Shown here: in pieces, positions 6,501-35,697 of the stretch
Layout: each line of letters begins with the position of its first letter
Position numbering within the stretch: position 1 is the first letter of the stretch
From: Escherichia coli
GTDB lineage: Bacteria; Pseudomonadota; Gammaproteobacteria; Enterobacterales; Enterobacteriaceae
Reading direction: 5' to 3' (one strand)
DNA: 64,000 bases
NCBI RefSeq assembly: GCF_046105845.1
Contig: NZ_CP151004.1
Notes under the pieces: generated by a model
The model's database searches: none
Told to the model about the DNA's origin: nothing
Seen by the model: the letters and a program-made list of their open reading frames with translations, nothing else
Program-made: the position numbers and the translations under genes

Positions 6501-6974
6501 TCAAAGTAATTTAAAGAGGTCCACAGCAGGCTCTGTCGGGACGCCCTGAACGAAGCATTCCACCCCAGCGGCTTTCAGGTCGTTAAATGCTGCGATATCG
6601 CCCGCATCTACAGAAACCGTTTTGGCGATTTGTTGCTTGCCATTGGCGTAGTGCATATTGCCAACGTTAATGCGATTCACCGGAACGCCACCTTTCACCA
6701 GCGTCAGGAAATCGGCAGGTGTTTTACAAACCAGCAGGATTTTCTGTCGATCGGCGGCGCGATGAATGTTGTCGATGACTTTTTGCAGCGTCCAGAAACG
6801 TACGGCGATCCCTTCTGCCAGTACCATTTCCATCAGGTTTTGTTGTACCGGATCTTCGGCAACCTCATCGTTGGCTACCAGCACCAGATTTGCCCCCGCA
6901 AATCCGACCCACTGAACGCCGACCTGACCGTGAATCAAGCGTTCATCAATCCGGCTTAAAACAATATTTGGCAT
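6501..6974 (-). CDS. agaV: PTS GalNAc/GalN IIB component
   Basis: ORF track 6501..7010; likely start MPNIVLSRIDERLIHGQ at 6974; paralog of agaB. Confidence 0.85.
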   Translation of the reverse strand: MPNIVLSRIDERLIHGQVGVQWVGFAGANLVLVANDEVAEDPVQQNLMEMVLAEGIAVRFWTLQKVIDNIHRAADRQKILLVCKTPADFLTLVKGGVPVNRINVGNMHYANGKQQIAKTVSVDAGDIAAFNDLKAAGVECFVQGVPTEPAVDLFKLL

Positions 6975-32414: not shown

Positions 32415-32518
32415 AATTCTTGACCTCTCTTTACTTCCTTTTATGGTAAGGGGCTGGACGCTACATTGTTAGCCAGATATTCTGCCCGGTATGTTCAAAT
32501 TTCCTGAATGAGAACGAA

Positions 32519-33415
32519 ATGGCCAAAGAAAGGGCATTAACGCTGGAAGCACTACGGGTTATGGATGCGATCGATCGCCGGGGCAGTTTTGCGGCGGCGG
32601 CGGATGAGCTGGGACGCGTGCCTTCCGCACTTAGCTACACCATGCAAAAACTGGAAGAAGAGCTGGATGTGGTGCTGTTTGACCGCTCGGGCCATCGCAC
32701 CAAATTCACCAATGTCGGGAGGATGTTGCTGGAGCGAGGGCGCGTTTTGCTGGAAGCCGCAGATAAACTGACTACCGATGCGGAAGCTCTCGCGCGCGGT
32801 TGGGAAACGCATCTCACCATTGTGACCGAAGCGCTGGTACCGACACCTGCCTTTTTCCCGTTAATTGACAAACTGGCGGCAAAAGCGAATACCCAACTGG
32901 CAATCATCACCGAAGTGCTGGCGGGGGCATGGGAACGGCTGGAGCAGGGGCGGGCGGATATTGTTATCGCGCCGGATATGCATTTTCGTTCCTCGTCGGA
33001 GATCAACTCGCGCAAACTCTATACCTTAATGAACGTCTACGTTGCCGCGCCTGATCACCCGATTCATCAGGAGCCGGAACCGTTATCTGAAGTGACGCGC
33101 GTGAAATATCGTGGAATTGCGGTGGCGGATACCGCTCGTGAGCGCCCGGTATTGACCGTACAGCTACTGGACAAACAGCCGCGTTTAACGGTGAGCACGA
33201 TTGAAGATAAACGTCAGGCATTACTGGCGGGGCTTGGCGTGGCGACGATGCCGTATCCGATGGTCGAAAAAGATATCGCGGAAGGGCGGTTGCGTGTCGT
33301 CAGCCCAGAATCGACTAGCGAGATCGATATTATTATGGCCTGGCGTCGTGACAGTATGGGGGAAGCGAAATCCTGGTGTCTGCGGGAAATTCCCAAACTT
33401 TTTAGCGGAAAATAA
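32519..33415 (+). CDS. yhaJ: LysR-family transcriptional regulator
   Basis: 298-aa ORF; divergent from yhaK. Confidence 0.85.
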   Translation: MAKERALTLEALRVMDAIDRRGSFAAAADELGRVPSALSYTMQKLEEELDVVLFDRSGHRTKFTNVGRMLLERGRVLLEAADKLTTDAEALARGWETHLTIVTEALVPTPAFFPLIDKLAAKANTQLAIITEVLAGAWERLEQGRADIVIAPDMHFRSSSEINSRKLYTLMNVYVAAPDHPIHQEPEPLSEVTRVKYRGIAVADTARERPVLTVQLLDKQPRLTVSTIEDKRQALLAGLGVATMPYPMVEKDIAEGRLRVVSPESTSEIDIIMAWRRDSMGEAKSWCLREIPKLFSGK

Positions 33416-33432
33416 TATTTGTTATTGTTAAT

Positions 33433-33461
33433 AAAAAGGGGCGAAATATCGCCCCAATTTT
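33433..33461. terminator. bidirectional rho-independent terminator between convergent yhaJ and yhaI
   Basis: AAAAAGGGGCGAAATATCGCCCCAATTTT, with A-run and T-run flanking the stem. Confidence 0.75.
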
Positions 33462-33465
33462 AATA

Positions 33466-33822
33466 TTAATTTGAACCAAACTTCGGATCGTTTCCGTAAC
33501 GATTGCTGCCAGAATTGCCCTCTAAACAGGCAAATACAAACAGAACTAACCAGCCAATGATCGGTACCAGATAGAGAAGCGCCCACGCACCTGAACGGTC
33601 AGTATCATGCAGACGACGAACGCACAGAGCAATGACCGGAATGATTGTTGCTGCCAGGTAAATGAGAGAAAGGAACGGAAACTCTAAACCTAAAATCAAT
33701 TGAATGACATTGATAATAGCGCCGACGATGGCGTTAATCAGAGTAAACATCCAGTACTCTTTACGACGTGCGCGACCAGAGAAACCAACATAATTTTTTA
33801 ATACGGATAAATACCACTGCAT
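33466..33822 (-). CDS. yhaI: DUF805 inner-membrane protein
   Basis: 118-aa ORF; paralog of the adjacent yhaH (shared LKNYVGF.GRARRKEYWMF motif). Confidence 0.8.
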   Translation of the reverse strand: MQWYLSVLKNYVGFSGRARRKEYWMFTLINAIVGAIINVIQLILGLEFPFLSLIYLAATIIPVIALCVRRLHDTDRSGAWALLYLVPIIGWLVLFVFACLEGNSGSNRYGNDPKFGSN

Positions 33823-34063
33823 AAAAACATCCCTTTAATTAAAAGTGACGAAAGTTTATTCCGGGTATTGTGTAAATGCTATTCGTATCTTTCTTTTTCG
33901 GATGTTATAAAGGTTTTGATATTTAAGATAAATACATGGTTATTTTTTATATGTAATTTATATAACGACATTGAAATATTTTAAATAAACATTAGTAAAT
34001 TATTCATTCATCAACATAATGATAAAAGCCGGATGAGTCAGACATCCGGCGAGCAGATTTGTT

Positions 34064-34429
34064 TTAAGCTTCCAGTTTTGGATCTGGTCCAAAGCGGTTT
34101 TCGCCTGGCGTACCCGCCTGGCAGTTAAAGACGATGATAATAAGCCAGCCGATAAACGGGATTAAGAATAGCAGTGCCCACCACGCCGAGCGGTCGGTGT
34201 CGTGCAGGCGGCGGAACTGAACCGCCCACCACGGTAAAAACACCAGAATACCGTAGATTGTTGTCAGGATGCCTTCGCCACCAGCGCGTTGCCAGCCTAA
34301 CATTTTATCCAGCAGCCCCAGCACGAACGTAAAGATGATGTTGACCAGAATAAACATCCAGTACTCTTTGCGCCGCGCACGACCCCGGAAACCGACATAA
34401 TTTTTTAGTACTTTCAGATACCAGTCCAT
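34064..34429 (-). CDS. yhaH: DUF805 inner-membrane protein
   Basis: ORF track 34064..34450; likely start MDWYLKVLKNYVGF at 34429. Confidence 0.8.
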   Translation of the reverse strand: MDWYLKVLKNYVGFRGRARRKEYWMFILVNIIFTFVLGLLDKMLGWQRAGGEGILTTIYGILVFLPWWAVQFRRLHDTDRSAWWALLFLIPFIGWLIIIVFNCQAGTPGENRFGPDPKLEA

Positions 34430-34554
34430 TTTTGCCTCAATTTTGCTCAATCACTTGTTTTTAAAGCAGCAAATTAAGAATAGACGTGAATGAAATGGCA
34501 GTAAATATTATCGCGATGAATTAATAAGGCACTGTGAAGGATAAGGGCAAGCGC

Positions 34555-34660
34555 AAAATCGCCAGATGCGCTACGCTTATCTGGCCTACGCGGCATTGTA
34601 ACATATTGAATATAAACGTTTTGTAGGTTGGAGAAGACGTTCACGCCGCATCCGACATAA
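34555..34660. repeat. pair of REP-type palindromes (BIME-like)
   Basis: GCCAGATGCGCTACGCTTATCTGGCCTACG and GACGTTCACGCCGCATCCGACA. Confidence 0.65.
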
Positions 34661-34710
34661 ATAACACGCACTTAGCTAATAATCAGAGGCACCTCGTAAG
34701 GTGCCTTTTT

Positions 34711-35697
34711 TTAACCGAAGCGAACATCTCGTCCATGCGGTTCATCGAGATCCTGCCACGGACCAATTGAAATAATCCCCGTAGGGTTGATGGTCTTATG
34801 GCTGCGGAAGTAGTGATTACGGATGTGATCGAAATTGACAGTTTCGGCAATCCCCGGCATCTGGTAGATATCGCGCAGGAAACCATACAGATTCAGGTAA
34901 TCGCTGATGCGGTGCTTATCACACTTGAAGTGGGTCACATACACTGGATCAAAACGGACCAGCGTGGTCCACAGGCGAATATCGGCTTCGGTTAGCTGAT
35001 TGCCGGTCAGGTAACGATGCTGGCCTAAAATCTGCTCCAGTCGCGCCAGCGATTCAAACACTTTCGCCACCGCCTCGTCGTAAGCTTGCTGGCTGGTGGC
35101 AAAACCAGCTTTATACACGCCGTTGTTAACGGTGTCATAAATCCAGCCGTTAAGTTCGTCAATTTTCGTTTGCAGGGCTGGTGGGTAGTAATCACCCGCT
35201 TTCGCGCCCAGCGCATCAAACGCGGTATTGAACATGCGGATGATTTCCGCTGATTCGTTGCTGACGATGGTGTGGTTCTTTTTGTCCCACAGTACGGGAA
35301 CAGTAACTCGTCCGCTGTAGTGTGGATCGGCGTGGAGATAAAGCTGATACAGAAATTCATGTTGATAGAGCGTATCTCCGGTTGCTCCCGGAAAACTGTC
35401 ATCAAAGGTCCAGCCGTTTTCCAGCATCAGCGGGTTCACTACGGAAACGGAAATAAACGGTTCCAGTCCTTTGAGTTTACGCATGATCAGCGTGCGGTGC
35501 GCCCACGGGCAGGCGAGTGAAACATAGAGATGATAACGATCTTTCTCTGCGGTAAAACCGCCTATGCCAGTGGGGCCAGGAGTGCCATCGGCAGTGAGCC
35601 AGTTACGAAATGCGGAAGCTGAACGTTGAAATTTACCGCCGGTGGATTTGGTATCGTACCAGGTGTCATGCCAGACGCCGTCAATCAGTTGACCCAT
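34711..35697 (-). CDS. yqjG: glutathionyl-hydroquinone reductase (Xi-class GST)
   Basis: ORF track 34711..35718; likely start MGQLIDGVWHDTWYDT at 35697, preceded by GGAGGAG. Confidence 0.88.
   Translation of the reverse strand: MGQLIDGVWHDTWYDTKSTGGKFQRSASAFRNWLTADGTPGPTGIGGFTAEKDRYHLYVSLACPWAHRTLIMRKLKGLEPFISVSVVNPLMLENGWTFDDSFPGATGDTLYQHEFLYQLYLHADPHYSGRVTVPVLWDKKNHTIVSNESAEIIRMFNTAFDALGAKAGDYYPPALQTKIDELNGWIYDTVNNGVYKAGFATSQQAYDEAVAKVFESLARLEQILGQHRYLTGNQLTEADIRLWTTLVRFDPVYVTHFKCDKHRISDYLNLYGFLRDIYQMPGIAETVNFDHIRNHYFRSHKTINPTGIISIGPWQDLDEPHGRDVRFG

Follow-up and report, generated by a model that had tools for sequence, protein, structure and literature searches.

yhaH and yhaI of Escherichia coli are old DUF805 paralogues that are probably transcribed as separate units

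Introduction

Several described systems share features with the locus analysed here, which consists of the tandem genes yhaI and yhaH in a 64,000-nucleotide stretch of Escherichia coli DNA (contig NZ_CP151004.1; this whole 64-kb stretch is termed the window, and coordinates refer to it). Dual-topology families, such as the EmrE-like SMR pairs and CrcB/Fluc, were reportedly described by Rapp et al. in 2006. YhaH and YhaI resemble these pairs in their small size, odd number of hydrophobic helices, arrangement as tandem paralogues, and occurrence of fused versions. However, the opposite bias of lysine and arginine residues (K+R) that defines an oppositely oriented pair is absent. YhaH and YhaI share the same bias, with a basic N-terminus and second loop and a nearly uncharged first loop, and were therefore rejected as a dual-topology pair.

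Inner-membrane proteins are exploited by phages after adsorption, as are ManYZ by lambda and PtsG by HK97. YhaH is likewise an inner-membrane protein that phages need, as they need these proteins and NfrB (phage N4), but it has no known transport function. The operons of the locus of enterocyte effacement (LEE) of enterohaemorrhagic and enteropathogenic E. coli have promoters that are silenced by H-NS and activated by Ler, which acts by displacing H-NS from AT-rich DNA. The DNA upstream of yhaI is similar to these promoters in its extreme AT-richness, in the activation of yhaI by Ler, and in the reported binding of H-NS to the neighbouring gene yhaH. It differs from them in that the yhaI locus is chromosomal and lies on no recognised island or mobile element.

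The analysis described here indicates that yhaH and yhaI are old paralogues. Each is probably transcribed on its own and not as part of an operon. The two genes arose by an ancient duplication and encode small inner-membrane proteins of the DUF805 family, and yhaI is probably quiet.

Results

Identity and homology of YhaH and YhaI

The open reading frames (ORFs) at 33466–33822 and 34064–34429, both on the minus strand, are the E. coli genes yhaI and yhaH, as judged from the gene order, the alignment with strain K-12, and the occurrence of the YhaI protein. The order and orientation of the genes in the window, yhaK (−), yhaJ (+), yhaI (−), yhaH (−), yqjG (−), and yqjF (−), match those of the K-12 locus yqjF-yqjG-yhaH(b3103)-yhaI(b3104)/yhaJ/yhaK in reverse orientation, with the conserved order yqjG-yhaH-yhaI-(convergent yhaJ)-yhaK. 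A 4.1-kb stretch around the pair aligns with K-12 at 96%, and the exact YhaI protein of the window is recorded on at least 1000 E. coli contigs. The yhaI gene starts with ATG, encodes a protein of 118 residues, and is the positional orthologue of b3104 by synteny, with the same length but a mosaic sequence; it is termed the window-type allele. The yhaH gene encodes a protein of 121 residues and is 99.5% identical to b3103 in nucleotide sequence. YhaH ends with LEA in the window and with LEP in K-12.

The longest ORF of yhaH spans 34064–34450 (−) and encodes 128 residues from a TTG codon. The real start is placed at the ATG at 34429 (MDWYL...), because a GAGG Shine-Dalgarno sequence is located 7 nt upstream of it and because it agrees with K-12 b3103 and with the family-wide N-terminus M-x-W-Y-L. 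An earlier note on this DNA located the pair correctly at 33466–34450, but took as its end the TTG of the longest ORF, which lies 21 nt beyond this ATG.

Both proteins match the Pfam family DUF805 (PF05656) over profile positions 1–110/111, with scores of 109.1 bits for YhaI and 120.7 bits for YhaH against a cut-off of 25.7. The pairwise alignment proposed in the earlier note gives 53% identity (63/118; E 1e-44, BLASTP), which is far beyond chance. Together with the K-12 synteny, these results confirm the gene names, the family, and the paralogy that the note had assigned, as well as its description of the products as only moderately similar. The motif LKNYVGF-x-GRARRKEYWMF, which it reported to be shared, is present as LKNYVGFSGRARRKEYWMF in YhaI and LKNYVGFRGRARRKEYWMF in YhaH. 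The DUF805 motifs GRxRRxEYW, RRLHD, and NxYGxxPK are present in the family order in both proteins, and so are all residues that are invariant in an alignment of 67 family sequences (Y11, R17, R20, E22, F26, P62, R69, R70, H72, D73, N107, G110, and P113). YhaH and YhaI are typical single-unit members with full-length matches, and nothing sets either apart. Elsewhere in the family, chains of several units occur, as do fusions to zinc ribbons, TPR, FHA, or pilin domains.

Probable arrangement of yhaH and yhaI as separate transcription units

The two genes probably do not form a two-gene operon, because 241 bp lie between them, yhaH is immediately followed by a strong hairpin of the terminator type, and their reported regulation differs. 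The gap (33823–34063, minus strand), described in the earlier note as about 240 bp of very AT-rich DNA, has a GC content of 27.0%, and no part of the window is richer in AT. Only 0.25% of the 241-bp windows are equally low, and the lowest GC content of any 120-bp segment (15.8%) falls within the spacer, at 33905. The GC content is 43% for yhaI, 52% for yhaH, 55% for yhaJ, and 50.9% on average in the window, so that the AT content of the spacer is well above average, as is that of H-NS-silenced promoters. The spacer is conserved among E. coli strains with yhaI: it is 99.2% identical to that of K-12 and at least 95% identical in approximately 4,340 E. coli genomes, and it carries no annotated feature. 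The structure of its RNA shows no excess over shuffled sequence (z = 0.14), and an Rfam scan of the locus gives nothing above threshold.

Each gene has its own hairpin downstream, as the earlier note had observed. The hairpin of yhaH at 34050–34028 (−), 14 nt past the stop codon, resembles an intrinsic terminator (GCCGGATG-N7-CATCCGGC followed by TTTTATCATT), with an 8-bp stem containing 6 GC pairs and a free energy of −15.0 kcal/mol. The hairpin of yhaI at 33455–33438 (−), 10 nt past the stop codon, consists of GGGGCGA-N4-TCGCCCC followed by TTTTTATTAA, with a 7-bp stem containing 6 GC pairs. Its sequence has the features of a terminator in either direction, with a T-run on each strand and free energies of −15.6 (after yhaI) and −14.3 kcal/mol, so that it would also serve the convergent gene yhaJ. 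In a scan for predicted terminators, 6 sites are found against 1.7 ± 1.2 expected in shuffled sequences, and both hairpins are among those that pass. The stem of the yhaH hairpin (GCCGGATG/CATCCGGC) is similar to that of a repetitive extragenic palindromic (REP) element.

A candidate sigma-70 promoter of yhaI is located in the spacer at 33904–33932 (−), approximately 82 nt upstream of the ATG. It consists of a weak −35-like hexamer TTTATC (33927–33932), a 17-nt spacer, and the −10 hexamer TATAAC (33904–33909). In the alignment of spacers, a block around this candidate is common to E. coli and Superficieibacter (ATTTAT..TTATCAAA..CTTTATA; ATTTATCTTAAATATCAAAACCTTTATAAC). The spacer is therefore probably not inert, but contains the yhaH terminator and, by inference, the promoter and 5'-untranslated region of yhaI, in DNA of the kind to which H-NS binds.

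Reported regulation of yhaH and yhaI

The published responses of the two genes are different. Ler activates yhaI 36-fold in enterohaemorrhagic E. coli (EHEC), which makes yhaI the strongest Ler-activated gene outside the LEE (PMC3891560). Upon overproduction of CpxR, yhaI is elevated 3.2-fold on arrays and 40.3-fold by quantitative reverse transcription PCR (qRT-PCR), whereas yhaH is elevated only 1.9-fold (PMC2731931). In K-12, the S2 Table of Higashi 2016 marks yhaH and the transcription unit to which it belongs as bound by H-NS (PMC4720273). In Salmonella, the small RNA SdsR directly targets the yhaH mRNA and represses both this message and its product, and YhaH becomes more abundant as stationary phase approaches (PMC5137417). 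Pairing of full-length, processed, or seed-only SdsR with the yhaH 5' region of the window, as calculated with RNAduplex, is no better than that with shuffled targets (a fraction of 0.33 of the shuffles did equally well or better).

Silencing of the spacer by H-NS would be the most economical reading of these reports, because Ler displaces H-NS from AT-rich DNA. According to the proposed scheme, transcription of yhaH would end at the hairpin at 34050–34028, and a weak promoter within the spacer, for which TATAAC at 33904–33909 is the candidate −10 hexamer, would drive yhaI separately. This promoter would lie in AT-rich DNA of the H-NS type, and yhaI would be largely silent. It would be turned on when silencing is overcome, as by Ler in EHEC, or under envelope stress through CpxR. 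yhaH would be expressed towards stationary phase and trimmed post-transcriptionally by SdsR.

Several points weigh against this scheme. Bury-Mone et al. list 'yhaH yhaI yhaJ' under 'Genes/putative operon' (PMC2731931). The evidence for H-NS binding is that for yhaH in K-12 in a supplementary table, in which yhaI is not included (PMC4720273). The high-affinity H-NS motif TCGATAAATT is not enriched in the spacer, which has one site with two mismatches. The CpxR box (GTAAA-N5-GTAAA) is not enriched in the spacer either, which has one site with one mismatch (33985–33999), and the number of these sites in the whole window (64 against 50 ± 7 expected; 4 of 100 shuffles reached 64) indicates no clear enrichment. 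A scan for consensus promoters with a threshold of 9/12 finds no site in the region, and the candidate promoter of yhaI matches at 8/12. No biochemical role of the products gains support: no solved relative was found, the fold matches are only generic and none is informative, and no recurrent neighbour of DUF805 genes, apart from genus-level synteny, is detected over 80 loci from many phyla. Two separate transcription units remain the probable arrangement.

Age of the pair

The near-invariance of the N-terminal motif across phyla indicates that its presence in both proteins is no mark of a recent duplication. This motif is nearly identical in the DUF805 proteins of Bacillota, Actinomycetota, and Bacteroidota. 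The family has 49,537 representatives of clusters at 50% identity (E ≤ 1e-3), and the E. coli proteins are 45–58% identical to members from Gram-positive bacteria or Bacteroidota, for a protein of approximately 115 residues. Citrobacter rodentium has the arrangement yqjG-yhaH (121 residues)-223 bp-yhaI (119 residues)-yhaJ-yhaK, with a spacer of 29.6% GC. Superficieibacter electus has three tandem DUF805 genes (145, 122, and 119 residues) ahead of yhaJ (L087, 2119–3860). The pair is therefore older than the split of these genera. The 464-bp gap ahead of the yhaI orthologue of S. electus contains GC-rich REP-like repeats.

The yhaH gene is 84%/75% identical between E. coli and Citrobacter in nucleotide sequence, and yhaI is 73%/58% identical, which indicates that yhaI evolves faster than yhaH. 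In a neighbour-joining tree of 67 DUF805 sequences, 298 of 300 bootstraps recover a clade of YhaH orthologues and 184 recover one of YhaI orthologues. The two clades are sisters in the point-estimate tree, but in only 60 bootstraps. YhaI is 54% identical to YhaH and 55–58% identical to DUF805 proteins of Paenibacillus, Exiguobacterium, and Streptomyces. The family diversity was obtained by a search of genome contigs with the YhaI protein of the window, and the orthologues by protein look-ups. The contig search returned no Enterobacteriaceae locus, although peptides of the query occur verbatim in E. coli; its best matches, at 55–58%, are from Bacillota and Actinomycetota, and close relatives seem to be absent from this collection or unreachable in it.

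These results bear on the possibility that yhaI and its AT-rich upstream DNA were not duplicated in place but acquired horizontally, as an insert of approximately 650 bp that is flanked by the yhaH and yhaJ stop codons and was then silenced as foreign DNA. The low GC contents of yhaI and the spacer relative to those of yhaH and yhaJ, the association with H-NS, the fact that YhaI is no closer to YhaH than to the proteins of Bacillota or Actinomycetota, and the poor recovery of the sister relationship in bootstraps are consistent with acquisition. So is the compact yhaH/yhaJ junction of 33–41 nt, without a trace of yhaI, in Salmonella, Klebsiella, and 18% of E. coli. Salmonella enterica (L093) and Klebsiella pneumoniae (L094) have only yhaH, with approximately 40 nt to the stop codon of yhaJ. 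However, the point-estimate tree groups the YhaH and YhaI clades, and no donor is found in the phage or plasmid collections. The same pair is present at the same place in Citrobacter and Superficieibacter, so that an acquisition would have to be older than the divergence of these lineages. Comparison of the hairpins at the yhaH/yhaJ junction does not polarise gain versus loss, because those of B2 E. coli, Salmonella, and Klebsiella are mutually unrelated. Acquisition of yhaI is thus considered a minority possibility, and yhaH and yhaI are regarded as old paralogues.

Allele states of yhaI

The yhaI gene of the window is 84% identical to that of K-12, and 57 of the 58 differences are located in a sharply bounded central cassette of 173 nt (33515–33687, minus strand), which is 67% identical. 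The cassette corresponds to nt 136–308 of the gene, or codons 46–103, and covers the second helix, the RRLHDTDRS loop, and the third hydrophobic segment. Outside the cassette there is one difference before it and none after it, so that the first 45 and last 15 codons are the same except for one synonymous change. Within the cassette, 17 codons change the amino acid. The proportion of synonymous differences (pS) is 0.74 and the nonsynonymous divergence (dN) is 0.21. This divergence is approximately as deep as that of yhaH between E. coli and Citrobacter (pS 0.71), but lies within near-identical flanks. By these sequence comparisons, the cassette is read as an old and selectively constrained divergence. 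Gene conversion from yhaH was rejected as its source: at the 57 sites, yhaH matches the window allele in 12 and the K-12 allele in 21, a slight excess that provides no explanation. A search of phage and plasmid collections for a donor of either form of the cassette gives none closer than 52%.

Among 5,426 complete E. coli genomes, 2,288 (~42%) carry the window-type cassette and 2,077 (~38%) the K-12-type cassette, and yhaI is absent from 992 (18%). Hybrids, such as P0004, are rare. In the genomes that lack yhaI, for example those of the B2 strains IHE3034 and JJ2434, yhaI, the spacer, and both terminators are replaced by 33 nt between the stop codons of yhaJ and yhaH (L003, 1817–1849, corresponding to approximately 33417–34066 of the window). 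This junction contains an unrelated hairpin (TTAAGCACC...GGTGCTTAA), and YhaH ends with KLEQE there. The K-12-type allele has a run of seven T (T7) at codons ~96–98 (L001, ~6697–6703). Frameshift products with T6 or T8 are common in the protein database (P0055, P0073, and P0064; 139/161 and 131 residues), with 345 contigs for P0055 and 190 for P0073. The T7 run is absent from the window allele, so that a phase-variable tract, if any, is confined to the K-12-type allele.

This variability might suggest that yhaI is a decaying, functionless duplicate under relaxed selection. The absence of yhaI from 18% of the genomes, the common frameshifts at the T7 run, the insertion of IS1 into yhaI in one genome, and the faster divergence of yhaI than of yhaH all fit such decay. 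However, a dN of 0.21 against a saturated synonymous divergence (dS; pS 0.74) in the cassette indicates purifying selection. Likewise, both alleles keep all residues that are invariant in the family, intact window-type YhaI is present on at least 1000 contigs, and yhaI responds strongly to Ler and CpxR. Neutral decay is therefore judged unlikely.

IS1 occupies three different sites in different strains, namely the 5' end of the yhaH gene, the interior of yhaI, and the AT-rich spacer (L002, 2510–3207; L090, 869–1566; L091, 1059–1753). This observation suggests that the locus is a local hot spot for IS1.

Architecture and topology of the DUF805 unit

Hydropathy analysis indicates three hydrophobic segments in both YhaH and YhaI, which are predicted by this analysis and by modelling to be small polytopic membrane proteins. 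The AlphaFold model of YhaI, built with the 67-sequence alignment, has a predicted local distance difference test score (pLDDT) of 89 and a predicted template modelling score (pTM) of 0.79. It contains a short N-terminal helix (2–10), long helices at 20–44 and 50–73, and a third hydrophobic helix (78–85/89–99), which is broken at the conserved Pro87 and Gly90. Each protein would thus be composed of an N-terminal amphipathic helix and three hydrophobic helices. The two-transmembrane architecture proposed in the earlier note does not agree with the number of hydrophobic helices, but may be right in that perhaps only two of them cross the membrane.

The basic residues of the unit are concentrated in the N-terminus (mean K+R of 5.6) and the second loop (3.0), and the first loop has almost none (0.15). 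Head-to-tail fusion of 2–4 units is frequent in DUF805 chains. The 150 best representatives of the family contain 49 inter-unit linkers, with a median of 33 residues, and only one of these has a stretch that resembles a transmembrane segment, which is borderline. If each unit crossed the membrane an odd number of times, every second fused unit would have its basic motifs in the periplasm. In homologue P0278, an FHA domain follows a single DUF805 unit directly, without a hydrophobic segment between them. In homologue P0303, DUF805 is followed by one transmembrane helix and then by a pilin domain. FHA domains are cytoplasmic, and the globular domains of pilins are outside. Both fusions therefore place the C-terminus of DUF805 inside. 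Zinc ribbons, either N- or C-terminal, and TPR repeats are also fused to DUF805 units (proteins P0164–P0313). YhaH was included in a screen limited to proteins with a C-terminus predicted or shown to be cytoplasmic, and YhaH-GFP is fluorescent at the membrane (PMC3225971).

These results argue for an even number of crossings, with both ends in the cytoplasm. One extra hydrophobic segment is present between RRLHD and the C-terminal motif in 28 of 192 DUF805 units. It would flip the conserved tail, unless the standard third segment does not cross the membrane. Two full crossings with a re-entrant third segment centred on Pro/Gly are somewhat more likely than three crossings, and the motifs GRxRRxEYW, RRLHDxxRS, and NxYGxxPK are then probably all cytoplasmic. 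In the modelled N-in/C-in topology, the invariant residues R17, R20, E22, R69, R70, H72, D73, N107, G110, and P113 would cluster on the cytoplasmic face.

DUF805 units probably act as oligomers, because many homologues have 2–4 units fused in one chain. YhaH and YhaI could accordingly be regarded as subunits of one hetero-oligomeric complex, in which the tandem genes represent the unfused version of two-unit DUF805 proteins. The short, non-hydrophobic nature of the 49 linkers that join the units is compatible with this possibility, as is the recurrence of tandem DUF805 genes (63 of the loci with a DUF805 gene have 70 such ORFs, and Superficieibacter has a row of three). However, the 992 E. coli genomes and the loci of Salmonella and Klebsiella retain yhaH in the absence of yhaI, frameshifts or IS1 insertions in yhaI are frequent, each gene has a terminator of its own, the reported regulation of the two is not the same, and mutation of yhaH by itself gives a phage phenotype. 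A complex of the two proteins is therefore quite improbable. YhaH and YhaI are probably not obligate partners in E. coli, because Salmonella, Klebsiella, and 992 of the 5,426 E. coli genomes keep only yhaH and because a yhaH single mutation blocks PhiWec188 and PhiWec190.

Flanking genes and intergenic regions

The convergent neighbour yhaJ, which encodes a LysR-type regulator, is located at 32519–33415 (+) and is 98% identical to K-12 b3105 in nucleotide sequence. The yhaK-yhaJ intergenic region contains two overlapping matches to the CpxR box, each with one mismatch, at 32420–32444 (−). Such sites are common by chance, but these could be related to the reported 2-fold effect of CpxR on yhaJ. 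The yqjG-yhaH intergenic region (34451–34710) is the presumed site of the yhaH promoter. It contains REP-like elements at 34561–34589 (+) and 34636–34658 (−) and a terminator-like hairpin of yqjG at 34706–34687 (−). This region is 85% identical to that of K-12, with 12 gapped positions, and is far more diverged than the flanking genes. At 34667–34711, Rfam gives a weak, sub-threshold isrD-like match (21.5 bits, gathering score 37; E 0.48). This match falls on the hairpin after yqjG and is probably only a resemblance to a terminator.

Discussion

The observation that two diverged DUF805 paralogues are arranged in tandem is real, but the pair consists of already known and catalogued E. coli genes, and the finding is ordinary, although yhaI is unusually variable from strain to strain. 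As stated in the earlier note, it adds nothing new, because both genes are already annotated in E. coli genomes and DUF805 is already a catalogued domain. The statement of the note that the function of the family is unknown agrees with the 2024 survey of the y-ome, in which both genes are still listed as uncharacterised and yhaH is described as 'surrounded by repeat sites' (PMC11551758). It is slightly outdated in the case of yhaH, which phages require as a host factor and which SdsR targets.

A recent report describes that spontaneous yhaH mutants of E. coli TK001 resist PhiWec188 and PhiWec190 and that a plasmid copy restores infection (bioRxiv 10.1101/2024.11.29.626071; PMC12695924). YhaH is treated by its authors as an inner-membrane requirement additional to the lipopolysaccharide (LPS) receptor, and NfrB of the phage N4 system also appears there. 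This phage resistance is the only direct phenotype and is that of yhaH alone. A search with anti-phage defence models (PADLOC) gives no match at E ≤ 0.1, and NCBIfam gives only sub-threshold matches. In the proposed scheme, yhaH is the copy that has been conserved and that some phages exploit as a host factor in the inner membrane, and yhaI would be a fast-evolving, dispensable spare.

DUF805 genes are also present in phages. Two Shiga toxin (Stx) phages, Shigella phage 75/02 Stx (L092, 2471–2860) and POCJ13, have an intact, unannotated DUF805 ORF in the nin region. It encodes 129 residues from TTG, is approximately 40% identical to YhaI, and has all family motifs; most of the neighbouring genes are on the other strand. 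A DUF805 domain is also present in PHROG 12855, which is annotated as 'membrane protein' and assigned to the moron category.

The variability of yhaI might be explained by an arms race rather than by neutral decay, if the state of this normally silent, fast-evolving spare is shaped by phages that use DUF805 inner-membrane host factors. This explanation is given little credence. If it is true, the two deeply diverged cassette alleles over the second and third hydrophobic helices, the loss of yhaI from 18% of the genomes, the frameshifts at the T-run of the K-12-type allele, the IS1 insertions, and the DUF805 genes of Stx phages are its marks.

The preferred reading remains that of two old paralogues, probably transcribed separately, with yhaI probably quiet. 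The best guess for the activity of DUF805, held with low confidence, is a membrane-embedded scaffold or a ligand- or lipid-binding site on the cytoplasmic face that is tied to envelope homeostasis. DUF805 is a very large family (approximately 50,000 clusters at 50% identity) that is strikingly conserved, yet has no known function. The argument from fusions for an N-in/C-in arrangement provides a concrete and cheap test of topology for this family. E. coli represents a natural experiment, in which a conserved copy with a phage phenotype is located beside a probably silent, strain-variable copy, and the three states of yhaI are suited to complementation tests.

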